A stretch of 64,000 bases of DNA from an uncultured Thermoanaerobaculia bacterium (GTDB lineage Bacteria; Acidobacteriota; UBA4820; DSQY01): the NCBI GenBank assembly GCA_964589625.1, contig CAZPSH010000008.1, positions 1 through 64,000 of the forward strand, read 5' to 3'. The notes beneath the pieces were generated by a model. It ran no database searches. It was given only the letters and a program-made list of their open reading frames with translations, and had not been told where the DNA came from. This document shows positions 13,312 to 32,589 of the stretch, one piece after another. Each line of letters begins with the position of its first letter. Positions within the stretch are counted from its first letter, which is position 1. The translations under genes and the position numbers were made by a program.

Positions 13312-14214
13312 CTAGTAAAGCGTGCCCGCGTTGATCACCGGGTGGGCCTCCCGCTCCCCGCACAGGACCACGAGAAGGTTCGAGACCATCTGGGCCTTGC
13401 GCTCCTCGTCGAGCTGCACGATCCCCTCGGCCCCCAGGCGATGAAGGGCCATCTGCACCATGCCTACGGCCCCCTCGACGATCTTCTGGCGGGCGGCGAT
13501 GACGGCGGAAGCCTGCTGGCGCTTGAGCATGGCCTCGGCGATCTCGGGGGCGTAGGCCAGGTGGCTCAGCCGGGCTTCCACCACGCGCACACCGGCCTTA
13601 TCGAGCCGGGCCTGGAGTTGCTTTTCCAGGGCGCCCGAGACTTCGTCGATGTTGCCCCGCAGGGAGATGACGGCCCCTTCCTCCTCCCAGGCGTCATAGG
13701 GGTACGAACTGGCCAGATGTCTCAAGGCCGACTCGCTCTGCACGGTCACATACTCCACGTAATGTTCCACCTGGAAACAGGCCGCAAAGGTGTCCTCCAC
13801 CTTCCAGACGACGACGGCGGCGATCTCGATGGGATTGGCCGCGCTGTCGTTGACCTTCAGCTTCTCGGAGTTCAGGTTGTGGAAGCGAAGGGAGATCTTC
13901 TTCTGGGTGGCGAAAGGGTTGACCCAGAAAAACCCGTTGCGCTTGACCGATCCCTTGTAGTCCCCGAAGAGGACGATGACGGCGGCCTCGTTCGGCTGAA
14001 GGATCAGGAATCCCTTGGTGGCCAGGATGGCCAGAAAAAGAAGGACCATGGCGACGATCACCAGAATGAGCCCCGGAGCCGTCTGGTTCTGGGACAGAAG
14101 AAATACGCCCCGGAGAAAGACGGGAACGGTGAGGGCGAACAGGAGAAAGTCGAGGATCACCATGAACCAACCCGACTGCGGCAGATACGGTCTTTCGTTC
14201 GACATGGCCCACAT
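13312..14214 (-). CDS. SPFH/band-7 (stomatin-like) membrane protein
   Basis: N-terminal TM segment followed by an SPFH domain pattern ([12 protein letters not shown]...[13 protein letters not shown]). Confidence 0.8.
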
Positions 14215-22503: not shown

Positions 22504-23437
22504 TTTCCGAGCGGAGGCGGTCGAGGTCCTCCTCCCCCCGGGGGCCCCATCCCTCCTCCCGCCTCCTGCGCCCGAAGGCGAGTTCCACCAGGGCCCTCCT
22601 CAGGAGCTGGACCGAGCCCCTCCGGATGTGCGGGCCCCGGTAGCCCGAAAAGGGCAGTACGGCAAGGGCTCTCAACGGGATCCGGTTTTCCCGGACCTCG
22701 TTTCGCAAGCGGTTGACGATCCAGCGCCTCTCCACGGCCCAGAGAACGGGAACCACCATCAGGAGGCCGACGCCGCCCACCCAGTGGACGAACAGGGCCG
22801 CGGCGACTCCTGAGAGGTCGAGGGAGGCCAAGAGGTTGTGCAGGGCATGGAGCCCGATGGCCGCCGCCAGTCCCATTGGGGGGAAAAAGAGGACGGCGAG
22901 GGGGTTGCGGTGAAAAACCCGGCCCAGGCCAAACCCGACCCCCGTGAGCGCCGTGAAGAGGGAGTGGTTGAGCATGAAACCGACGTTTCGGACGCCGAAG
23001 ACGAGGGCACCCAACTCCACTCCCCCCTGGGAGAGGGCCCCGACGAAGTAGAAGAGGTCCTCCACGAAGGAGAACCCCACCCCGACGGCGGCCCCGTAAA
23101 CCATCCCATCGAGGACATCGTCGAACTCCTTCTGATAGAGCAGGATGGCAAGGAGCAGGGCGGCCGCCTTGGCCACCTCCTCCACGGGGGGAGCCAGGAA
23201 GACCGTGCTGAGCAGGGCCCCCGCCTGCGGTCCCGCGAGGACCTGGAGGGGAACCTGCACGGCGGTCTCGAGCACGCAGGAGAGCAGGATCGCGGGGACG
23301 GCCCCCCATCCGGCGCACAGGAGCAGGATGGACCAGGGCTCTCTCTCGTACCGGTCGGCCAGCCAGATGAGGGTGAGGAGGAGTGCAGAAAGGGGCAGGT
23401 TGACGGCCAGGTAGAGGGCGAGGGACGCGAATCCCAT
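22478..23437 (-). CDS. prsW: PrsW-family intramembrane metalloprotease
   Basis: Multi-TM protein with PrsW signature elements (VEEVAKAAAL, FSFVEDLFY, HALHN). Confidence 0.7.
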   Translation of the reverse strand: MGFASLALYLAVNLPLSALLLTLIWLADRYEREPWSILLLCAGWGAVPAILLSCVLETAVQVPLQVLAGPQAGALLSTVFLAPPVEEVAKAAALLLAILLYQKEFDDVLDGMVYGAAVGVGFSFVEDLFYFVGALSQGGVELGALVFGVRNVGFMLNHSLFTALTGVGFGLGRVFHRNPLAVLFFPPMGLAAAIGLHALHNLLASLDLSGVAAALFVHWVGGVGLLMVVPVLWAVERRWIVNRLRNEVRENRIPLRALAVLPFSGYRGPHIRRGSVQLLRRALVELAFGRRRREEGWGPRGEEDLDRLRSEIRRVCPDP

Positions 23438-23440
23438 CGG

Positions 23441-24394
23441 CTACCCCGGCCCCGGTTCGGCCATGGAGTGGATCAGGGCGCGGAGGTGCCGGCCGTCGGA
23501 GCCGCAACAGCCACCCAAGAGGCTCAATCCGAACCGACGGTGCAAGTCCAGCAGGCCGGCTCCGAAGGACTCGGGGGATTCGGCGTCCAACTCGGGCCTT
23601 CCATCCAGCTCCTCCGGACTCAAGGGGGAGGTGTTGGCCTGGATTCCCCGGAGCCTGTCTCGAAGTCTGGCATCACCAACCCGGGCTTCCGCCGCCGCGA
23701 GGGCCGAAGCCGCGTTGCGGGCGTGGACGCAGTTCAGCATGTGGAGGAGAGGGGGGGTGGGGGTCCCCTGGTCCACAAGGTCCACGGCTTCCTCCAGCGG
23801 GGTCCCGTCGAGGAGGTACCCCGAGGGGCGGACCACATAGCTCGCCACGTAGGGAAGCCCGGTGCGGGCCAAGGCGCGGCACAAGCCGAGGGCTTCGGGC
23901 AGGGTGCACTGGGTGGCCGCCTGGAACCCGTCGACGCCCGCCCGCGCCAGCGCCTCCGCCTGGGGGCCGTGGAAAACCTCGGCCTTCGCGGCTGGGAGGC
24001 CCTCTTCGGGCCGGTAGGCATCCCCCCGGCTTCCCATGAGGCCCAGGATGAGCACCCGATCCCCGTAGGGGCCACACGCCCCGCGGAGATCTCGGAGGAA
24101 CCGGACCGCCTCCCCGTTCACGTCCGAGCCCTCCAGACCCGCGGCCCGGAGCCTCTCCAGGTTGGACCGCCAGGTGGGGGTAAGAAGGATGAGGGGAACG
24201 CCCGCTTCCCGCCCGATGTCGAGGTACTCCTCGTAAATGCGACCGAGGGCGAGGCGCCCCGCAGCGGAGAGAACCAGCCCGGCGTGGACCACGTGAGGGT
24301 CGAGACGGATCGCCGGGTCTCGCCGAAGTCGCTCCACCACGGCACCTTCCAGGAGGATCCACGGAGCAGAGCCGACGGCTGTGGAGACGTCCAT
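23441..24394 (-). CDS. Homocysteine S-methyltransferase family protein
   Basis: ILLEGAVVERL ... LLGGCCGSDGRHLRAL matches the Pfam S-methyl_trans pattern, including the GGCCG zinc-binding end. The stop is 4 nt from the prsW start. Confidence 0.7.
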   Translation of the reverse strand: MDVSTAVGSAPWILLEGAVVERLRRDPAIRLDPHVVHAGLVLSAAGRLALGRIYEEYLDIGREAGVPLILLTPTWRSNLERLRAAGLEGSDVNGEAVRFLRDLRGACGPYGDRVLILGLMGSRGDAYRPEEGLPAAKAEVFHGPQAEALARAGVDGFQAATQCTLPEALGLCRALARTGLPYVASYVVRPSGYLLDGTPLEEAVDLVDQGTPTPPLLHMLNCVHARNAASALAAAEARVGDARLRDRLRGIQANTSPLSPEELDGRPELDAESPESFGAGLLDLHRRFGLSLLGGCCGSDGRHLRALIHSMAEPGPG

Positions 24395-24568
24395 GCACGG
24401 TCCCTCGAGAAACCTCGCGCAGTGATTGTACCTCACGCTCGTGCCACCACACACGTCGCCCGCCTCCCGTTTGGGGCCATCCCGCGTACGGTCGGTCCCT
24501 CGCCCTGCCCGCACTTGCGCCTGAACCTCCGGGGCCCTATTCTGGGCGCTCGAGCGCGCGAGGGAGCC

Positions 24569-26446
24569 ATGGCCAACGGGCCGTACGATCCGGATGTGTA
24601 TCGAAGGTTCGCGGAGAATCTGCGAGCCTCCCTCGCGGGGGACAACGTGGAACGGGCGTCCATGCGCCGTTTGCGGAAGCGGGCTCTGCAGACCGCTTTT
24701 CGCACGCGGAGCGGAGCGCCCCTGTGGTGGTCGGCCGTCTCCTCCCGCGTCGCTTCCAAGACCGTTTACCTCGGGTCGGGTCCGGACGTCGTTCTTCCCA
24801 GACCCAGCGCGGAACAGTTGGCCATCGTGGCGCGCGCGCCCGAGCAGCTCCACAAGGTGCTCCAGCTCGTACGCACCATGCCCTTCGTTCACGCACGGAG
24901 GCAGATGGGAGACAATCCCGAGTTCAACCCGATCTGCAACCTCTTTGTGTGCACGGCCGACGCCAAGAATTACCGCCTGGCCTACGAATGGGCTTCCACC
25001 ATGGGCGACGTGAAGCGGGGACGGCCCGGCCCCGAGTTCTTCATGATCCACATCCCCATGGAGCACCAGCTCCGGATGCAGGTGCTGACCTTGCCCGAAC
25101 AGGACGTGAACGTGGCCCTCGGAACCGACTACACGGGGGAGTGCAAGAAGGGATTCCTCCGCCAGGCCATGTACCGCGCCGACCAGCGCGGGATGCTGGG
25201 CCTGCATGCCGGCACGAAGATCGTGAGGGCCCGGGACGAGAAGTCGGGTAAGCTCAAGACCTACGCGGTCTTCCTGTTCGGCCTCACGGCCACGGGAAAG
25301 TCCACCTGGTCCTGCCACCAGCTCGGACTCGATCCGGACGCGGGCGAGGGCACCTGGGTGGCCCAGGACGACATCGTCCTCCTCCGGCGCGACGGCTCCT
25401 CCTACGGAACGGAGCAGAACTACTACGTCAAGACGGACGTGGACCTTACGATGCAGGAGGCCATGTACCGCGCCCTGTCTCACCGGAGCGCCCTGCTCGA
25501 AAACGTCATGGTGAATCACCGCGGGGAGGTCGACTTCCTGGACGAGCGCCTCGGAGAAAACGGCCGCGGGGTGCTCGACCGCCGGGAACTCAAGGTGAAA
25601 CGCGGCGGGCGGACCGTATCCATCTGCCACGACTCCATCAATACCCCGCCCCTCGAGGAGGTGGACGGAATCGTCTTCGCCTTCATCACGCGGCGCAACA
25701 CCATCATGCCCTTTGCCCAGCGGCTCACGCCCGAGCAGGGGGTCCTGGCCTACCTGTGGGGCGAATCCAGCCACTCCTTCGCCACGGTTCCCGCCAAGGC
25801 GGGGGAATCGGTTCGCATCGTGGGGATGGACGATTTCATCATCGGCGCCCAGGGCCGGAAGGTGAACGCCTTCTACGATATCGTGAAAGACCTATGTTCC
25901 CGGCACCCCGGTAAGGTCCACTTCCTGCAGTACAACACCGGCGGGATGGGAGAGGTCATCGAAGTCGACGGCGCCTCCGGGAAGAAGACCCTGGTTCGAA
26001 AGGTCCAGCGGGTCCCCATCGACCTGATGGCCGCCCTGCAACGGGGGGACCTGAGGGGCTCCAACGTGCACCGGAAGGGACGCTTCGGGACCGAGGAGGT
26101 GGTTGCCTGCGAAGGGGCCGACCTCTCGGCCTGGGATCCGGCGCGCTTCTATTCGGAGGACAAGATCGCCGGTTTCGTGCGGGAAATCGTGGAGGGCCGC
26201 CGCGCCTTCACCGAAGAGATCGCCGCACAGGGACTCAAGAAGGAGATCCGCGACCTCGCCCACCGGGAACTGGATGCGGTGGACGGGCGAACGCCGCGGG
26301 TGGAGCCGTGGGCCCCGTCGGTTCCGGGCGCTTCCGAGGCCGCCGAGGACCGCCTGCCCCTCTCCCCCTACATCGCGCCGTGGGAGCCGCGCCGCTCGGG
26401 CCGGGACCCCCCTTCCCTTCCGAAGGGGAGGCGGCTGAGCCCATGA
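24569..26446 (+). CDS. Phosphoenolpyruvate carboxykinase (ATP)-family protein, divergent and long (625 aa)
   Basis: PEPCK-ATP landmarks in order: LGTDYTGECKKGF (compare GGTWYGGEMKKG), kinase-1a FLFGLTATGKST (compare FFGLSGTGKTT), VAQDDIVLLRRDGSSYGTEQNYYVKT (compare IGDDEHGW..EGGCYAKT), and LQYNTGGMG (compare VNTGWNG). Confidence 0.65.
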   Translation: MANGPYDPDVYRRFAENLRASLAGDNVERASMRRLRKRALQTAFRTRSGAPLWWSAVSSRVASKTVYLGSGPDVVLPRPSAEQLAIVARAPEQLHKVLQLVRTMPFVHARRQMGDNPEFNPICNLFVCTADAKNYRLAYEWASTMGDVKRGRPGPEFFMIHIPMEHQLRMQVLTLPEQDVNVALGTDYTGECKKGFLRQAMYRADQRGMLGLHAGTKIVRARDEKSGKLKTYAVFLFGLTATGKSTWSCHQLGLDPDAGEGTWVAQDDIVLLRRDGSSYGTEQNYYVKTDVDLTMQEAMYRALSHRSALLENVMVNHRGEVDFLDERLGENGRGVLDRRELKVKRGGRTVSICHDSINTPPLEEVDGIVFAFITRRNTIMPFAQRLTPEQGVLAYLWGESSHSFATVPAKAGESVRIVGMDDFIIGAQGRKVNAFYDIVKDLCSRHPGKVHFLQYNTGGMGEVIEVDGASGKKTLVRKVQRVPIDLMAALQRGDLRGSNVHRKGRFGTEEVVACEGADLSAWDPARFYSEDKIAGFVREIVEGRRAFTEEIAAQGLKKEIRDLAHRELDAVDGRTPRVEPWAPSVPGASEAAEDRLPLSPYIAPWEPRRSGRDPPSLPKGRRLSP

Positions 26447-27132
26447 AGACGTTCCGACCGCCCGGAGCGGGGCTTGCGGCCCTGGCCGGCGTGGCTCTCT
26501 GCGCCTCCTCGTTTCTCGCCTCCGGCCCTCCCGGGCCCTCCACGGTATGGGTGGAAACCTTCGCCAGCGCCGCCTCCTTCCGGGCGGAGTGGACCGTGAA
26601 GAAGTGGCGGGGGGCGGTGGACCTGCTCTTCGAAACGTCCCAGGGCGCCCCGGCCTTGGATCTCGTCAGCCGGTCCTCCTCGTGGGCCTTCCTCCGAAGG
26701 GTGGACGTGGACCTCACCAGAACCCCCGTTCTCGCCTGGTCTTGGCGCGTGGACGCGTACCCGCCATCGGGGGACGGCCGGCGGGCCGAATCGGACGACG
26801 AGCCCGCCCAGGTGTACGTGTTCTTCCCGGGGAGGGGCCCCGCGGGAAGGCTCCAGCCCCGCATCCTCGGTTACACCTGGGAGACGGTGCCCGAGGCCGG
26901 AACGTTCTACCATTCGCCCAAGAACGACGGGACCCGGGTTTTCGTCCTGAGAAGCCGCAGGGATGGCCAGGGCATTTGGGCTTCGGAGGCGAGGGACGTG
27001 GCGGGGGACTTCGAGAGGGCCTTCGGAGAATCCGCGCCACGGCCCCTCGCCGTCTGCTTCCAGATCGACTCGGACGACACGGCCTCCACGGCCCGAAGCG
27101 CCTTCGCCGCCCTCCGCTTCACGTCGCGCTGA
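26443..27132 (+). CDS. DUF3047-like secreted protein
   Basis: Signal peptide, ~230 aa, AEWTVKKW...VDVDLTRTPVLAWSWRVD pattern. The ATG overlaps the upstream stop (ATGA). Confidence 0.5.
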   Translation: MKTFRPPGAGLAALAGVALCASSFLASGPPGPSTVWVETFASAASFRAEWTVKKWRGAVDLLFETSQGAPALDLVSRSSSWAFLRRVDVDLTRTPVLAWSWRVDAYPPSGDGRRAESDDEPAQVYVFFPGRGPAGRLQPRILGYTWETVPEAGTFYHSPKNDGTRVFVLRSRRDGQGIWASEARDVAGDFERAFGESAPRPLAVCFQIDSDDTASTARSAFAALRFTSR

Positions 27133-27146
27133 ACCCGAGCCGCCCC

Positions 27147-29486
27147 TCAGGTCCCCGAAAGGGCGTCCAGGAGGAGCCGGGCCTGGGCCTCGGGGCTTCC
27201 CACAGACGTGTTCAGAAGGACCGTGCGGCAGAGGGCGAAGAGGCTCTCGTGGCGGGCGCGGAGTTGGTCCACGCGGCTTGCGTCGAAGAGGCCCCGAAGG
27301 TGGGGATTGAGCAGGGAAGGACCCAAGCCCCGGTGGCCGGGGAGGCTGCCGTCGGCCAGCATGCGGGCGGCGTCCCGTGGCTCCAGCGCCTTCAGCCCGG
27401 GCAGGACGGGATCCCTGGCCAACAGGACGCAGAGCCTCAGCAAGGTCCGCCGCGTATGACGAGCGGATCCCCCAAGCCAGTATGGATCCAACATGAGGCG
27501 CCCGTCCACGCTGGCGACGGGGCAGGCCGGGGCGCCCTTGTCCAGGGGGCACGCGTCCGAATTCTTGCAGTACTCGACCCGGCAGTCCTCCCTCCGCGTG
27601 ACCACGTTTTCCAGCTTGGACCTCTCCAGGAGGGCCTCGATCTCCGGCAGATGTTTGGCCCACTTGGCCTTGAGGTAGAGCTTCCTTTCTGGAAGGTCGG
27701 CCGTGGCGCCGCCCGCTCCGAGGCGGACCAGGACCACCTCGGAGGCCACCAAGCGGGCGCCGTCGCGCGCGAGGGCCGCGGCGAGGAGGCCCGTCCGCCC
27801 CGTCCCCGGCCCGCCCCAAACGAGGGCCCCCGCACCGCCGACGTCGAGGGCGGCGGCGTGGGCGAGGAAGGCCCCCGAGGTCCGGGAGGCGGTCTCCCCC
27901 GCGAGGGCCAGGGCCGCCGAGCGGACCTGACCGTACAATGCCGTGTTGAAGAGGAAGGCCGTGGCCGTCTCCGGGGAGAGGTGGGCCTGGGGCTCCCTCC
28001 CGGGGGCGTCCTTCACGGCGTAGACCACCGCGTGGGGCTCAATGTCCCCCTCCAGGGAGGCGGGGTAGAAGTTCTCCTGAAAAAAGTCGGCGAGGTGGGG
28101 GGAGTTCGTCCTCAATTGGACGACGGCCCCGCAGAGGGAAGCGTTCCATTCGAAGTAGCTGTCGGCCGGAATCCCGCTCTGGGCCTCCTTAAGGAGGGCG
28201 TTTCGGGCCTCGAATCCCGCGACGGGACGGGCTTCCACGCAGTCCCTCACCTTCGTAAGGACGTTGTTAAGGGCCCTGGGCTTCAGGCGCCGCGGGGCTT
28301 CCAGGCGGGCTAGGGCCCGGGCGATCCGGCGCAGGCCCTCCTCGATGCGGTCCATGGAGGAGGCGAAGGAGAGCCGCAGGTGCTCTCCCGCCTGGAAAGC
28401 CTCCCCGGGAACCACGGCCACGTGGGCCTCTTTGAGGAGATAGTAGGCAAGGCCATAGGTGTTTCGGACCGGAGCCCCGTGGAACTCCTTGTCGAGGTAG
28501 GCGGAGACGTTGGGCAGAACGTAAAAGGCTCCCGACGGTGTCCCGCAGGAAAGCCCCGGGATGGACTGGAGCCGGTAGACGATGGCGTTCCGGCGCCTCT
28601 CGAACTCCTGGCGCATCCTCTCCACATCCGTGGAGCAGGAACGAAGGGCCTCCACGGCGGCCTTCTGGACGAAGGACGTGGCGTTGGATGTGGCGTGGGA
28701 CTGGATCTTGGAGCATGCCGAGATGATCTCCTTCGGTCCCGCCGCGTAGCCGAGCCGCCAGCCGGTCATCGAGAAGGCCTTGGAAAAGCCGTTCACCACC
28801 ACGGAGATCTTGCGGATGGCCTCCCCGAGGGAGGCGATGGAAACGAACCGCCGTCCGTCGTAGAGGAGCTTCTCGTAAATCTCGTCGGAGAGGACGAGGA
28901 CCTGCTCCTTGACGCACACCTCGGCCAGGCCTTCCAGGTCTTCGCGGGAGTAGGTGGCTCCCGTCGGATTGCAGGGATAGTTGAGCACGAGGGCCTTGGT
29001 GTTGGGCGTGATGGCGGCCTGCAGGTCCCGCGCCTGGAGCCGGAAGCCCTCCTCCTCCCGGGTGGGGACGAAGACCGCGTTGGCGCCCGCCACGCGGACC
29101 TGGTCGGGATAGGAGACCCAGCACGGTGTGGGAATCAGGACGTCGTCTCCGGGCTCGAACAAGGAGAGGGCCAAGTGGAAGAGGTTGGCCTTGGCACCCG
29201 GAGAGACGATCACCTCCTCGGGCGAATAGGGCAGGTTGTTCTCTCGCTCGAGCTTCTCGCAGATCGCCCGCTTGAGTTCGGGGATGCCGTCGTTGGCCGT
29301 GTACTTGGTGAAGCCGGCGTCCAGCGCGGCCTTGGCCGCGCGGTTCACCGGGTCGGGCGTGGGGAAATCGGGCTCCCCCACGGAGAAATCCACTACGTCC
29401 ACGCCCTGGGCCTTCATCTGTTGCGCCCTCGCCGTGATCCGGAGGGTGGGGCTCATCCCGATTCGGTTCACCCGTTCCGTCAGCAT
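27147..29486 (-). CDS. Fusion protein: class-I PLP aminotransferase (AspAT-like) N-domain plus HprK-like P-loop domain with a Cys-rich C-terminal region
   Basis: N-terminal ~400 aa carry aminotransferase motifs (SPGAKANL, NGFSKAFSMTGWRLGY). From ~aa 500 the sequence (AFLAHAAALDVGGAGALVWGGPGTGRTGLLAAALARDGARLVASE) parallels the HprK C-domain (H.AxVxVxGxGVLIxGxSGxGKS..ALxLIxRGHRLVADD), with the P-loop Lys replaced by Arg. One continuous 779-aa ORF. Confidence 0.6.
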   Translation of the reverse strand: MLTERVNRIGMSPTLRITARAQQMKAQGVDVVDFSVGEPDFPTPDPVNRAAKAALDAGFTKYTANDGIPELKRAICEKLERENNLPYSPEEVIVSPGAKANLFHLALSLFEPGDDVLIPTPCWVSYPDQVRVAGANAVFVPTREEEGFRLQARDLQAAITPNTKALVLNYPCNPTGATYSREDLEGLAEVCVKEQVLVLSDEIYEKLLYDGRRFVSIASLGEAIRKISVVVNGFSKAFSMTGWRLGYAAGPKEIISACSKIQSHATSNATSFVQKAAVEALRSCSTDVERMRQEFERRRNAIVYRLQSIPGLSCGTPSGAFYVLPNVSAYLDKEFHGAPVRNTYGLAYYLLKEAHVAVVPGEAFQAGEHLRLSFASSMDRIEEGLRRIARALARLEAPRRLKPRALNNVLTKVRDCVEARPVAGFEARNALLKEAQSGIPADSYFEWNASLCGAVVQLRTNSPHLADFFQENFYPASLEGDIEPHAVVYAVKDAPGREPQAHLSPETATAFLFNTALYGQVRSAALALAGETASRTSGAFLAHAAALDVGGAGALVWGGPGTGRTGLLAAALARDGARLVASEVVLVRLGAGGATADLPERKLYLKAKWAKHLPEIEALLERSKLENVVTRREDCRVEYCKNSDACPLDKGAPACPVASVDGRLMLDPYWLGGSARHTRRTLLRLCVLLARDPVLPGLKALEPRDAARMLADGSLPGHRGLGPSLLNPHLRGLFDASRVDQLRARHESLFALCRTVLLNTSVGSPEAQARLLLDALSGT

Positions 29487-29510
29487 GAGGTCACCTGCGA
29501 ACGCGCTTCG

Positions 29511-30878
29511 TCAGTCCTGCTTCTTCTTCAGGATGGCCTTCAGGTCGATACCGGTCAGGCTCTCCACAACCTCCGGGAGCTGGGCGAGGACCGAGGCCAC
29601 CTGGCCGGTGATTTTGGGCGCTCCGTGGTTCTCCCCGACCATCACGATTTTGTCCACCTTGGCGAGGGGTTCGGCCACGGCGCGCGCCAGGTCCGGGAGG
29701 GTCTTGAGGGCGGTCTCCTGCAGGGCTGCATCGGTGTATTCCTTGTAGGCGGAGGCCTTGTCGCGCATGGCTTCGGCCTCGGCGGACCCGCGGGCACGAA
29801 TGGCGTCCGCCGCCGCGGCGCCCTCCAAGCGGACCCCGGCCGCCCGCCCCTTGGCCTCGAGTTCCTTGCGGAAGGCCTCCGTCTCGGCCTCCAGTTTGGC
29901 CTGGTACTGCATGGCTTCGGCCGGCCTCTTGACGGTGGCCTCGAGTTCCTTTTCCCGGCGCTCGATCTCCTTCTCCCCGACGCGCGCCGCCAATTCCACC
30001 TCGGCGAGCCGGACGGCGAACTCCTGACGCCGAAGCTCTTCCGAGAGCTTGGCCCGCTCGAGATCGTAGGAAACGTCCGCGGTGGCCCTCTTCACGTTCA
30101 CGGCGGCCTGGAATTCCGCCCGCTGGATCTCGAAATCCCGAGTGGCGCGGGCCAACTCGGCCTCGGCGGCCAGACGGGCCACGTCGCCCTCCTTCCGGTA
30201 CTCGGAGGCCCGGATGGCGGCGTCGCGCTCGGTTTCCGCCTGGGCGATGGCGGCGTCGCGCTTCACCTCGGCGATGCGGCGGGCGCCCAGGGACTGGATG
30301 TAGCCCTGGGAGTCGGCGATGTCCTTGAGGGCAAAGGAGACCAGTTCCAGGCCCAGCCGGGCGAAATCGTCGGCGGCGCGCTCGCGAACGCGTTCGGCAA
30401 ATTCCTCGCGCTGGGTGTAGATCTCCTCCACGGAGAGGGTCCCGAGAATGGCCCGCATGTGGCCCTCCAGGACCTCCTGGGCCACGTAGACGATGGCCGA
30501 GGCGCCCTTGGAGAGGAAGTTCTCCACGGCCCGGTGGAGGAGGGGCTCCTCGGCGCAGGCCTTTACCTGCCCCTGGGCCTCGGCGGAGAGGAGGACACCC
30601 TGGGCGGTGAGGACCTCCGGGCACCGCAGGGAGAGGGACATGACCTCCAGGGGCAGGACGTCCACCGTTTCCATGAGCGGCATGACGAAGGTCCCCCCGC
30701 CCACCTGGAGCCGGTAGCCTACCCTGCGGGACCTGCCGTCCGGTTCCGTCATCGTGGAGCTTCGACCCGAGATGACCAAAACCTGGTTGGGTCCCACCTT
30801 CCGGTAGTTGAAGGCCCAGATAGCGAGGAAGGCGACGACGACGACGGCGATGGCCGACGGAACGATGATCCAGACCAT
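29511..30878 (-). CDS. Flotillin-family SPFH protein (YqiK/FloA-like)
   Basis: N-terminal TM, SPFH domain, then a long EA-rich coiled-coil (AEAELARATRDFEIQRAEFQAAV...). ATG at 30878. Confidence 0.85.
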   Translation of the reverse strand: MVWIIVPSAIAVVVVAFLAIWAFNYRKVGPNQVLVISGRSSTMTEPDGRSRRVGYRLQVGGGTFVMPLMETVDVLPLEVMSLSLRCPEVLTAQGVLLSAEAQGQVKACAEEPLLHRAVENFLSKGASAIVYVAQEVLEGHMRAILGTLSVEEIYTQREEFAERVRERAADDFARLGLELVSFALKDIADSQGYIQSLGARRIAEVKRDAAIAQAETERDAAIRASEYRKEGDVARLAAEAELARATRDFEIQRAEFQAAVNVKRATADVSYDLERAKLSEELRRQEFAVRLAEVELAARVGEKEIERREKELEATVKRPAEAMQYQAKLEAETEAFRKELEAKGRAAGVRLEGAAAADAIRARGSAEAEAMRDKASAYKEYTDAALQETALKTLPDLARAVAEPLAKVDKIVMVGENHGAPKITGQVASVLAQLPEVVESLTGIDLKAILKKKQD

Positions 30879-30919
30879 GGGAACCCCCTCCGGCGCCCCC
30901 GGGCGCCGAGCGATTCGAT

Positions 30920-32020
30920 CTAGGCCAATTCTCCCACCCTCGAAGGCCTGCCGATGTGGAATCCCTGGGCGTATCGGAAGCCGACGGACCGGCACGCGTC
31001 CAGCTCCTCGGGGGTCTCCACGCCCTCCGCGAGGGAGGCGATCCCCAAGTCCCGAGTCATGCGCACGAGGACCTCGAGGAACTTGGTGTACCGCTTGGGC
31101 TTCAAGGGGAGGTGGCGGACGAGGGACGCGTCGAACTTCAGGTAGTGGGGAGGGACCTCGATGAGCTCCAGGAGGCGCGCCTGGCCCGCTCCGAAGTCGT
31201 CGTAGGCCAGCCACACGTCGATGGAGAGAAGTTCGTCCTTGAGGCGGCGCATGGATTCGGGATCGGTCACCGCCTTCTCGCTCACCTCCACGGTGAGGGG
31301 CATCCCGGGCCGCTCCTCACGCACCGACCGGAGGGCTTCCAGAAAGACGGGATCGGCGGTCTCTGTGGGGTGCACGTTGATGAAGAGGGTGGGGCTGTCT
31401 GGCAGGACCCCGCCCGCCCGGAGCCCTTCCTCCCAGAAGATCCGGCTCAGGTCGGTTTCGAGCCCGAGGATCTGGGCGATGGCGAACAAGGACTCGGGAT
31501 CCTCCGGGAGGCCTTCGGCGGTTCCCCGTCCGAAGATCTCGAAGCCGTGGGTCCGTCCTGTCGCGAGGTCCACGATGGGCTGAAACCTCGGCTCCACAGC
31601 CCTGCGCTCGATGAGGTCGCGGAATCGGGCCGCCACGCTCTCCACGTCCCGGCCCGGCGCGAGAAGCTCGAGCGACGTGCTCGTATCCTCCGTCGAGTCC
31701 TCCGCTTCCCGTCGGACCCGAAACTCGAGGTCGCCGAAGCGAATGAGGTCGCCCGCCTGGAGCGGTGCCTCCTCCTCGCCCAGGCGCATTCGGTTCAGGA
31801 AGGTCCCGTTCTTGCTCGCCAGGTCCTGGAGGAGAAGGTCCCCGCCCCTGGAGAAGATTTGGGCGTGGGCGCGGGAGATGCTCCTGGATTCGAGGTGGAG
31901 GTGGCACTCGCTGCGGCGGCCCACCAGAAACGGCAGATCCTTGAGGGGCACCCGGAGCGCCTTGCCCCCGTCCATCATCCCTTCCAGATACCAGCCCAGG
32001 GGCCTTCCCCTCTCATCCAT
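30920..32020 (-). CDS. FHA domain + EAL domain protein (putative c-di-GMP phosphodiesterase with phospho-Thr-binding module)
   Basis: FHA pattern (LVGRRSECHLHLESRSISRAHAQI...SKNGTFLN) followed by EAL-domain motifs (EIFGRG, LTVEVSE, LAYDDFGAGQA, LKFD, AEGVET). Confidence 0.75.
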   Translation of the reverse strand: MDERGRPLGWYLEGMMDGGKALRVPLKDLPFLVGRRSECHLHLESRSISRAHAQIFSRGGDLLLQDLASKNGTFLNRMRLGEEEAPLQAGDLIRFGDLEFRVRREAEDSTEDTSTSLELLAPGRDVESVAARFRDLIERRAVEPRFQPIVDLATGRTHGFEIFGRGTAEGLPEDPESLFAIAQILGLETDLSRIFWEEGLRAGGVLPDSPTLFINVHPTETADPVFLEALRSVREERPGMPLTVEVSEKAVTDPESMRRLKDELLSIDVWLAYDDFGAGQARLLELIEVPPHYLKFDASLVRHLPLKPKRYTKFLEVLVRMTRDLGIASLAEGVETPEELDACRSVGFRYAQGFHIGRPSRVGELA

Positions 32021-32075
32021 CCCCTGAAGTATACGCGCCTGGGGCCCGCCACCGAAAGGCTCAGCCCGCGCCGGG

Positions 32076-32471
32076 TCATTCCTCCGAGCCGGGGAGGAGG
32101 ACCAGGAGGAAGGCCGCCACGGCGGCGTGGGCGAGACCGTACCGGGAGTCCTTCAGGATGAGGGAAAGCGCCAGGCCCAACAGGGCACCCCCTTCCACGA
32201 GGGCGGCGGCCAGGATGAAGCGTTGGAGGGGCCAGGGCCGGGGCCCAGACCGGAAGAGGATGGGGGCCTGCGCCCTCCTCCCCAGGATCATCCCCGCCGC
32301 CCACGTCCCCAGCGCACAGAGGGTGAGGACGTAAAAGAGGGGGGCCATCCTCGGGGCCACGGGGACCGTCGGGAGGGACCAGTCGGGCGGGCCGGCCACA
32401 AAGACGGCCACCCCGCCGTAAATGAGGACGGAAACGACGAACGCCCCCTTGAGGAACCTGGCGATTCCCAT
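32076..32471 (-). CDS. Small hypothetical membrane protein
   Basis: Four hydrophobic helices, GC3-rich. No family recognised. Confidence 0.4.
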   Translation of the reverse strand: MGIARFLKGAFVVSVLIYGGVAVFVAGPPDWSLPTVPVAPRMAPLFYVLTLCALGTWAAGMILGRRAQAPILFRSGPRPWPLQRFILAAALVEGGALLGLALSLILKDSRYGLAHAAVAAFLLVLLPGSEE

Positions 32472-32589
32472 GGCCCACCTCCCCCGGGGCGCATTGTCTC
32501 AGAGCGGAAAGCCGGGCCACAAGCCCCGGGAGGCAAGGGCCCGCATGCCGTGTTGGGAGGGTGGCGGGCCGCGTCCGAGCCCGTGCTTT

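Follow-up and report, generated by a model that had tools for sequence, protein, structure and literature searches.

Within the window, a 64,000-nucleotide stretch of a genome from an uncultured Thermoanaerobaculia bacterium, we found a gene that joins an aspartate aminotransferase-type domain (AT) to a small PEP carboxykinase (PEPCK)-like C-terminal domain (CD). The AT–CD fusion is a real, widely conserved and uncharacterised gene. Together with a flotillin gene and a full-length, divergent PEPCK-like gene (PCKL), it forms a conserved three-gene unit. Taken together, the data suggest a membrane-linked module for aspartate, oxaloacetate and PEP that is so far undescribed, and not a protein kinase.

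A fusion gene maintained across phyla

The first-pass annotation of this DNA described one continuous 779-aa open reading frame composed of an aminotransferase and a second region. This description holds, with the correction that the frame lies on the minus strand (Table 1); the two strings that it quoted correspond to residues 542-583 (AHAAALDVGGAGALVWGGPGTGRTGLLAAALARDGARLVASE) and 640-656 (CKNSDACPLDKGAPACP). AT and CD are contiguous and in the same frame in 45 full-length coding sequences from independent genomes of several phyla, so the frameshift considered at the outset is not the origin of the fusion. The sequence of the AT–CD junction is conserved, and both halves are under purifying selection (dN/dS ~0.03-0.14 for AT and ~0.06-0.26 for CD). 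Proteins of ~775 aa with this architecture are kept in more than 50 species-level genomes; the genome scan for these loci used a close-family alignment (A1), the broad alignment (A2) being too diverse.

An identical 779-aa protein, encoded on a 129-kb contig, has been deposited in NCBI, where it is named only 'pyridoxal phosphate-dependent aminotransferase'. The literature searched contained no prior description of an AT–CD fusion, in agreement with the initial remark that no aminotransferase–HprK fusion is known to have been described. Nothing relevant was found there on PEPCK-like pseudoenzymes, on linkage of flotillin with aminotransferases or on PEPCK in Thermoanaerobaculia.

Table 1. Features of the fusion gene and its neighbours in the window
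Feature	Position	Strand	Basis or remark
AT–CD fusion gene	27147..29486	minus	ATG start, 779 aa plus stop; open reading frame list and translation
Class Ib aspartate aminotransferase domain (AT), residues 1-392	28311..29486	minus	PF00155
PLP-lysine motif NGFSKAFSMTGWR, Lys236	28755..28793	minus	motif conserved across loci
Mini-PEPCK-like domain (CD), residues 393-779 (387 aa)	27150..28310	minus	
LYGQVRS motif, residues 517-523	27918..27938	minus	counterpart of PEPCK Y-x-G-E-x-K-K; Arg522 replaces first Lys
Degenerate P-loop GGPGTGRTG, Arg564 at Walker-A Lys position	27789..27815	minus	aligns to K243 of PCKL
Four-ligand Cys/His insertion (Cys635, Cys640, Cys646, Cys655), putative metal knuckle	27522..27584	minus	motif conservation
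Flotillin-to-fusion spacer, 24 nt, SD-like AGGTGA	29487..29510	minus	sequence
Flotillin (SPFH/Band_7 + Flot), 455 aa, N-terminal hydrophobic segment	29511..30878	minus	Pfam
PCKL, full-length divergent PEPCK-like gene, 625 aa	24569..26446	plus	convergent with fusion; PF01293, E 4.6e-25

The aminotransferase half

As originally proposed, the N-terminus is a complete class-I PLP aminotransferase: Pfam Aminotran_1_2 matches residues 30-388 (E 2.6e-78). The 392 residues of AT align end to end with characterised aspartate aminotransferases (AspATs) at E 1e-93 to 6e-103, the best PDB matches being 6f77 (6e-103), 1j32 (3e-100), 5wmh and 1bjw (3e-93). The PLP-lysine motif follows the class Ib pattern S-K-x-x-x-M-T-G-W-R and is present in every locus that covers the site, with conservative variation (N-G-[FLV]-S-K-A-[FY]-[SA]-M-T-G-W-R). 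By sequence, AT is a canonical class Ib AspAT, and aspartate would be its probable substrate. Scores with the NCBIfam aspartate aminotransferase models are ~399 bits, against equivalog cutoffs of 550-617, and the relatives include bifunctional Asp/prephenate enzymes (5wmh).

A PEPCK-like rather than HprK-like C-terminal domain

The C-terminal half had initially been read as an HprK-like core. To judge from its profile matches, it is a member of the HprK/PEPCK P-loop superfamily, and to that extent the reading stands; however, PEPCK matches the whole domain far better, and PEPCK-specific motifs that are absent from HprK align with CD, which speaks against the proposed affinity for HprK. None of the HprK models (TIGR00679, PF07475, HprK-related A and B) reaches its curated cutoff: HprK_rel_A scores 25 bits (cutoff 200), hpr-ser 14.9 (240) and HprK_rel_B 14 (200), and Pfam Hpr_kinase_C gives no match to the window protein. 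Nor is structural likeness confined to, or best with, the HprK C-domain. CD has the two-domain fold of PEPCK, and the top 50 Foldseek matches are all PEPCKs. Its profile match to the PEPCK structure 1ii2 spans the YxGExKK, His, P-loop, NTR and NTG motifs, and hhalign pairs the CD family with the PCKL family (96.4%), aligning CD 54-376 to residues 111-458 of the 624 in PCKL. PEPCK_ATP did not appear in Pfam or among the NCBIfam matches listed for the C-terminal half. The hhalign comparison detected no counterparts in CD of the N-terminal ~110 residues of PEPCK, with the substrate-binding segment (invariant S-S-R), or of the C-terminal ~165 residues, with the adenine-binding segment; the N-terminus of CD may hold a remote remnant of the former.

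A profile search with the CD family returned 292 matches, with stand-alone members recovered over the whole domain at E 1e-30 to 1e-49. CD is a full-length profile member of this unmodelled family of mini-PEPCK P-loop proteins (~355-410 aa), with which it shares the motifs WNA, QLRTN, FW-x-ENW, YYGQ, ER-x-x-Y, ENV, (N)SR-x-x-x-DP, NPYL and NT. It descends from an uncharacterised family of ~380-aa proteins that are distant kin of the NF006821-type PEPCKs. Among the stand-alone relatives, 27 keep G-x-G-K-[ST], YYGQCKS, SIHG and DDW. Their contexts indicate no conserved partner in the three cases P0041, P0040 and P0058: the first adjoins a C26/GATase-type glutamine amidotransferase and gyrA, the second lies among ndk, yicC and gmk, and the third is on a 2-kb contig. 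One of the longer profile matches carries an intein.

Catalytic positions drift while the domain is retained

The substitution of Arg for the Walker-A Lys, already recognised in the first-pass annotation, is confirmed. All 18 close-family sequences and every copy from Acidobacteriota carry Arg564, and the loop differs from the G-x-S-G-x-G-K-S of HprK, with its catalytic Lys. A second Lys has changed in the same way: hhalign places R130 (C-half numbering) on K192 of PCKL, and the window protein reads LYGQVRS where stand-alone relatives have YYGQCKS. Set against the PEPCK catalytic residues (Y-x-G-E-x-K-K, the metal His, G-K-[ST], the DD pair and the N-x-R arginine), CD keeps the Tyr, Gly, His, Thr and Arg663 and shows E to Q, K to R, K to S, P-loop K to R and DD to SE. 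The DD pair reads SE, SD or ND in the fused clade. Against the stand-alone family (K in YYGQxK, H, G-K-[ST], DD), the corresponding residues in the window clade are R, H, G-R-T and SE/SD.

Across phyla, the P-loop position of the fusions is Arg in Acidobacteriota, Met in Myxococcales, GTKKNE in Calditrichota and APNVKKER in CSSED10-310. Calditrichota fusions have Tyr at the R333-equivalent, and the His position is Arg or Tyr in some fusion-bearing phyla. This drift appears confined to the fused clade and speaks against kinase activity as a conserved function. CD is not decaying, as it is under strong purifying selection, and ERKLY, ENV and G-R..DP are kept in all 45 full-length fusions. Over ~45 Acidobacteriota species, Arg522, His543, Arg564, Thr565, Asp/Glu583, Lys606 and Arg663 are invariantly chemically similar; this fits retained ligand binding and is still compatible with catalysis.

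The Cys-rich cluster reported initially is indeed present, but lies inside the domain, inserted between the ENV and G-R-x-x-x-DP motifs, and does not form a tail. The pattern [CH]..[CH]..C..C occurs in 45/45 full-length fusions and in many stand-alone relatives, and the predicted structure has pLDDT <50 at this site. The insertion is a putative knuckle that may bind metal.

Correlated replacement of both Lys by Arg is seen also in a few stand-alone relatives (P0112, P0127, P0154), which hints at an alternative functional active-site configuration. P0127 shares a gene run (L065) with a GTP-PEPCK and an Aminotran_1_2 gene; this aminotransferase is of the DegT/PseC sugar type, and we do not count the locus as evidence. 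P0154 simply follows ruvC.

Flotillin and a full-length PEPCK-like protein as genomic partners

The flotillin gene ends 24 nt before the fusion ATG on the same strand, as first noted. A flotillin lies directly upstream on the same strand in all 45 AT–CD loci that have 3 kb or more of flanking sequence, and also in the divergent loci L067 and L068, with a spacer of 17 nt. The promoter/terminator scan was empty, with no terminator-like sites in 24000-32500.

The second HprK/PEPCK-fold gene described as convergent nearby is PCKL. Its catalytic motifs YTGECKKG, LHAG, TATGKST, QDD, ENV and ENGRG show no variation among 8 orthologues. Because its NF006821 score (264 bits) is below the cutoff (369) and it is very distant from solved PEPCKs, its activity is assumed. 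PCKL is present in 30 of the 37 AT–CD loci that have 8 kb or more of flanking sequence (~81%), from several phyla, and missing in 7. It is divergently adjacent to flotillin in 17 loci; in the window it is downstream of the fusion and not beside flotillin. The triad of flotillin, AT–CD and PCKL recurs in Myxococcales (L053), in L067 and in Calditrichia (L057), where the three genes form a co-directional run in that order. PADLOC matched none of the five cluster proteins to a defence system.

In a metagenomic protein of 899 aa (P0065), a degenerate CD is joined to a PEPCK of the NF006821 type, whose score of 416 bits exceeds the cutoff. Flotillin is not near this gene, and no further CD–PCKL fusions were found among the longer profile matches.

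Proposed function and alternatives

AspAT and PEPCK catalyse successive steps, with labile oxaloacetate as the metabolite common to both. The fusion, the neighbourhood and the Rosetta-stone protein P0065 suggest a dedicated aspartate–oxaloacetate–PEP node. Our preferred reading, held tentatively and at a little short of an even chance, is that an AspAT is coupled to PCKL and flotillin through CD, acting as a non-canonical ligand-binding or docking module. AT would interconvert aspartate plus 2-oxoglutarate with oxaloacetate plus glutamate. The fused CD appears to have lost the canonical phosphotransfer set (both Lys to Arg, DD to SE/SD/ND, flanking segments undetected) and to have kept a glycine-rich anion hole, a basic pocket and the Cys/His knuckle. 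Canonical kinase activity has probably been lost, and likelier roles for the domain are binding of an anionic ligand (oxaloacetate, PEP or one of nucleotide type), docking of the aminotransferase onto PCKL and membrane-anchored flotillin, or both. Oxaloacetate could in that case be handed straight from one reaction to the other, from transamination to PEP formation or the reverse. A membrane-associated metabolon, in which a pseudo-PEPCK adaptor links AspAT to PEP carboxykinase on a flotillin scaffold and oxaloacetate is channelled, we regard as unlikely.

Alternatively, the protein may be bifunctional, with an active, Arg-based CD that converts the oxaloacetate of AT to PEP or pyruvate, possibly with another phosphoryl donor, and PCKL would be a separate paralogue. 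Residues at all catalytic positions are chemically conservative and invariant over the Acidobacteriota species, selection is strong, the double Lys-to-Arg change recurs in stand-alone relatives, and CD still has the P-loop glycines, Thr565 and Arg663, the R333-equivalent. Counter to this, the same cluster is kept in phyla that lack such residues (with Met in the Walker position, Tyr for the R333-equivalent and either Arg or Tyr for the His), the N-terminal S-S-R segment and C-terminal ~165 residues of PEPCK have no detected counterpart, and a fully equipped PCKL is co-clustered. Walker-A Lys-to-Arg changes usually abolish phosphotransfer. We judge bifunctionality improbable, if far from negligible.

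A different role for CD, chiefly tethering the aminotransferase to a flotillin scaffold (compare NfeD in other SPFH operons) with PCKL as secondary, seems to us quite unlikely. The flotillin linkage is complete, the spacer stays within 17-24 nt in the most divergent lineages too, PCKL linkage is lower, and the conserved surface of CD is rich in Arg and Lys. Yet P0065 joins CD to a PEPCK with no flotillin nearby, and the oxaloacetate logic that connects AT and PCKL would go unexplained.

The original proposal of an HprK-like protein or peptide kinase, in the style of lasso-peptide kinases, fused to an aminotransferase is very improbable. The whole of CD is matched far better by PEPCK, including PEPCK-only motifs; the loop has no Walker Lys, and in other phyla the site has degraded further. 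No HPr, lasso-peptide or other RiPP genes, and no precursor peptide, lasso cyclase or PqqD genes, were found among the neighbours scanned, where the conserved partners are flotillin and PCKL. Oxaloacetate as a shared metabolite offers a simpler rationale. An assembly or sequencing artefact joining two ordinary genes has next to no probability: the gene is split or frameshifted in some long-read metagenome assemblies (L001-L004), but the independent in-frame copies across several phyla, the conserved junction and purifying selection on both halves already refute it.

Implications

These results identify an annotation gap: neither Pfam nor NCBIfam models one half of a ~775-aa protein. They also define a new branch of the PEPCK/HprK superfamily with ~292 cluster representatives, in which most stand-alone members look catalytically competent. 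An aspartate–oxaloacetate–PEP node is suggested for Thermoanaerobaculia and other uncultured lineages, and the invariant pairing with flotillin gives a testable handle on what bacterial flotillins organise. If the metabolon were real, the aminotransferase would rank as the first soluble metabolic cargo to be defined genetically for a bacterial flotillin, and CD as a bacterial PEPCK-fold pseudoenzyme that serves as an assembly module.

Comparison with known systems

NDUEG2 (8j9h), a PEPCK-fold accessory subunit of Euglena respiratory complex I, resembles CD at the level of fold (17% identity), but is a eukaryotic mitochondrial subunit with no aminotransferase fusion and no flotillin link. HPr kinase/phosphorylase and the HprK-related (lasso-peptide) kinases share with CD the P-loop subdomain, a G-x-x-G-x-G..LV-x-D-D-like pattern and weak HMM matches. 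However, only ~135-150 residues superpose, the N-subdomain of CD is PEPCK-like, and CD has neither the Walker Lys nor an HPr or RiPP context.

Characterised class Ib AspATs (6f77, 1j32, 1bjw, 5wmh) align with AT end to end and have the same PLP-lysine motif, but are stand-alone proteins of ~385-410 aa, and a PEPCK-like C-terminal module is absent from all of those matched. Compared with ATP-dependent PckA (PF01293, TIGR00224; 1ii2, 1aq2), CD has only 387 aa, with the PEPCK core alone detectable. Arg replaces both catalytic Lys, Ser the second Lys of the KK pair and SE/SD/ND the DD pair, and there is an extra Cys/His insertion.

By HMM, the full-length proteins closest to the CD family are the NF006821-type PEPCK-like enzymes (E 1e-8 to 1e-14 for stand-alone relatives). 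Their likeness to CD extends from the hhalign match to genetic linkage and the CD–PCKL fusion P0065. PCKL retains 625 aa with all catalytic motifs invariant, and CD is by comparison a truncated, lysine-less derivative.

Results

An uninterrupted ORF encodes the fusion protein, with its aminotransferase part (AT) at residues 1-392 and a second part (CD) at residues 393-779. This is as the first-pass annotation had reported, and the sequence strings quoted there lie at residues 542-583 and 640-656. The aminotransferase that it described as complete is covered by Aminotran_1_2 over residues 30-388 (Pfam, E 2.6e-78); Pfam finds no domain in residues ~393-779. A frameshift does not account for the architecture: wherever flanking sequence is available, tblastn shows AT and CD adjoining in a single reading frame, and 45 full-length fusion CDS were recovered, each of 760-800 aa. 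The CD query (387 aa) returned 25 close relatives, several running upstream into PF00155, and scanning a single genome for each species gave 54 loci. The window itself comes from an uncultured lineage of Acidobacteriota. Most relatives are Thermoanaerobaculia, the nearest being MAG014 (locus L040; 96-99% identity over the region, identical gene order). Both parts are under purifying selection, with dN/dS in close pairs of ~0.03-0.14 (AT) and ~0.06-0.26 (CD).

Apparent stand-alone versions of 397, 451 and 489 aa were explained by contig ends or long-read-assembly frameshifts. In ENA ERZ250395xx metagenome assemblies (L001-L004), frameshifts break the fusion gene into two or three called genes, giving misleading stand-alone or shortened database proteins (for example P0002, P0011, P0013, P0018 and P0023). 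In one Thermoanaerobaculaceae MAG (L030) the full fusion gene is followed ~3.4 kb downstream by a 278-aa ORF, a second copy of CD that lacks the N-terminal part and opens shortly ahead of the GGPGSGRTG loop; either partial duplication or a chimeric assembly could explain it.

AT can be aligned over its whole length with characterised class Ib aspartate aminotransferases (6f77, E 6e-103; 1j32; Thermus 1bjw; and 5wmh, a bifunctional Asp/prephenate enzyme). The PLP-lysine motif N-G-F-S-K-A-x-S-M-T-G-W-R is kept in every locus covering that region, and NCBIfam aspartate aminotransferase models score ~399 bits, under their equivalog cutoffs. Fold and chemistry are secure; we strongly infer aspartate/oxaloacetate specificity.

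HMM matches of CD are weak and HprK-related alone (HprK_rel_A scores 25 bits, where the cutoff is 200). An AlphaFold2 model from the family alignment has a confident core (pTM 0.73), with low confidence in residues 1-50 and the Cys loop. Its top 50 Foldseek matches in the PDB are PEPCKs without exception, with E values reaching 1.4e-12 and TMq of 0.50-0.63. One of them, 9a4u_A, belongs to an entry described as integrative modelling of a PckA-Qox2 complex, a hint that a link between PEPCK and membrane proteins has been put forward elsewhere. Searched as a sequence profile, the broad family alignment best matches 1ii2 (E 1.4e-6), pairing NT-x-YYGQ-x-KS with GTEYAGEMKKG, SIHG with CMHAS, the two P-loops, K-N-S-R with KNTRVAYP, and LLNT with LLNTG; HPr kinase (HprK) lacks several of these motifs. 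Profile-profile comparison with the family of PCKL, the full-length PEPCK-like protein encoded nearby, aligns CD 54-376 with PCKL 111-458 of 624 (96.4% probability, E 1.2e-9, 299 columns). Together these results identify CD as a cut-down whole PEPCK core and not merely an HprK-type domain, so the HprK-like assignment made from the sequence holds for the superfamily and fails for the family.

An exhaustive profile search with the CD family yielded 292 cluster representatives, among them further full-length fusions (P0026, P0029 and P0034) and numerous stand-alone proteins, ~355-410 aa long, whose sources include Omnitrophota. The stand-alone relatives have no assigned Pfam or NCBIfam family and weakly resemble NF006821 'PEPCK'. 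They strictly keep YYGQCKS, SIHG, TGTGK[ST]T, [SG]DDW, ER-x-x-Y-x-RT, ENV and NSR, with a canonical G-K-[ST] in 27 members. One of them (P0145, 754 aa) contains an intein splicing domain at residues 216-393 (PF14890, E 1.5e-16), shortly after the stretch that matches the profile's P-loop part; its placement is consistent with functional importance of that site in the stand-alone family. Two others with the same double K-to-R change as the window protein, P0127 and P0154, lie directly downstream of ruvC; a bona fide GTP-PEPCK (898 bits) is found ~0.7 kb upstream of P0127.

The catalytic positions strictly kept in stand-alone members are those changed in the fused clade. By hhalign mapping, the window's Arg522, Ser523 and His543 correspond to K192, K193 and H212 of PCKL; Arg564 to the Walker Lys, K243; Thr565 to S244; Ser582/Glu583 to D266/D267; Tyr604/Lys606 to Y285/K287; Glu626/Asn627 to E310/N311; and Arg663 to R332. 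Myxococcales fusions have GSAGSGMSG (Met) at the loop and Arg for the His, Calditrichota GPKGTKKNE and Tyr at the R332 equivalent, Aminicenantes GGEGTKRTS and Tyr for the His, and CSSED10-310 APNVKKER; P0026 still has GSGKTG. A four-ligand Cys/His insertion, found also in many stand-alone members, is kept in all fusions (45/45), as are ERKLY, ENV and the ..DP motif. Median identity to the window is 64% for CD versus ~75% for AT, flotillin and PCKL, so CD evolves faster than its partners.

Wherever at least 3 kb of flank is available (45 loci), flotillin lies directly upstream on the same strand without exception; in the two most divergent fusions, L067 and L068, it is 17 nt away. In the window its stop is 24 nt before the fusion ATG, the spacing first noted, and an SD-like AGGTGA precedes that ATG. 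The second PEPCK-type gene seen nearby in convergent orientation is PCKL; of the 37 loci flanked by at least 8 kb, 30 contain it, and in 17 loci it divergently adjoins flotillin. The triad recurs in Myxococcales (L053), Calditrichia (L057) and L067; in L057 the three genes run co-directionally, PCKL beginning 26 nt past the aligned CD end. Every PEPCK catalytic motif is invariant in PCKL, which is nevertheless remote from solved PEPCKs (1ytm, E 1.5e-6) and scores under the NF006821 cutoff (264 versus 369 bits). Independently, in P0065 (899 aa, three contigs, L059-L061) an NF006821-type PEPCK scoring above cutoff is fused with a CD-like domain that is degenerate. The neighbours of P0065 (V4R, Robl_LC7, TFIIE-alpha-like HTH) look archaeal, and no flotillin is nearby. 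Two fusions, AT-CD and CD-PCKL, and the conserved linkage connect AT, CD and PCKL by Rosetta-stone logic.

In the window an FHA-EAL gene ends 41 nt before flotillin begins, which makes a co-directional FHA-EAL/flotillin/AT-CD run. Near-identical L040 shares this order; elsewhere PCKL mostly takes the place upstream of flotillin. The ATG of a DUF3047 gene overlaps the PCKL stop (ATGA, 26443-26446), which suggests translational coupling. Its product has a hydrophobic, signal-peptide-like N-terminal stretch, and its stop is only 14 nt from the convergent fusion-gene stop. A search of 58 related loci turned up no homologue of DUF3047 in any of them, which makes the pairing specific to the window. 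A second SPFH/Band_7 protein is encoded ~15 kb from flotillin. Very long overlapping ORFs around PCKL are over-extensions typical of high-GC DNA, beneath which the real genes appear to be PCKL and a homocysteine S-methyltransferase.

Positions of the fusion gene, its neighbours and further CD-family copies
Feature	Locus	Positions	Strand	Basis
FHA + EAL (c-di-GMP phosphodiesterase-type)	window	30920-32020	-	
Flotillin (Band_7 + Flot)	window	29511-30878	-	Pfam
AT-CD fusion ORF, 779 aa	window	27147-29486	-	ORF list + translation
DUF3047	window	26443-27132	+	PF11249, E 3.9e-30
PCKL	window	24569-26446	+	
Over-extended ORF	window	22838-26446	+	
Over-extended ORF, 777 aa	window	23441-25774	-	Pfam homocysteine S-methyltransferase, residues 474-767 only
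Apparent homocysteine S-methyltransferase, ~318 aa	window	about 23441-24400	-	
Second SPFH/Band_7	window	13312-14214	-	PF01145, E 1.1e-24
Second CD copy	L030	14455-15291	+	
P0127	L065	8001-9269		
P0154	L066	1268-2329		

Discussion

The fusion is a new architecture, and CD a new sub-family, made from known folds. Our literature search found no paper that describes the fusion or its linkage to flotillin, nor any on the CD family, in keeping with the initial remark that no described aminotransferase-HprK fusion was known. NCBI names the protein only 'pyridoxal phosphate-dependent aminotransferase', and defence-system models gave no match.

Our reading of the substitutions is that canonical phosphotransfer was relaxed after fusion. 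Across ~45 Acidobacteriota species no variation occurs at the two Arg, the His, the Thr or Arg663; in this phylum the pocket remains constrained, probably to bind an anionic ligand. Natural or engineered Walker-A K-to-R sites usually bind without turnover, which offers a lead. As the main alternative, the Arg-bearing site may still be catalytic in Acidobacteriota. The chemically conservative nature of these invariant residues and the same double change in a few stand-alone proteins speak for this, which we nevertheless consider unlikely. That CD serves as an adaptor for flotillin, its constant neighbour in the fusions and absent around P0065, is more doubtful still. The protein or peptide kinase of HprK type suggested by the first-pass annotation finds no support in fold, motifs or context and is very improbable.

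The best-supported account, held tentatively at a little under an even chance, is a composite one whose mechanism we infer. AT would interconvert aspartate and oxaloacetate; CD would serve as a lysine-less truncated PEPCK-fold module that binds a ligand, tethers the enzyme to PCKL and membrane-anchored flotillin, or does both; and PCKL would carry out the oxaloacetate/PEP step. Aspartate aminotransferase and PEPCK are consecutive enzymes with oxaloacetate in common, and their pairing is well established, as in gluconeogenesis from amino acids and PEPCK-type C4 photosynthesis.
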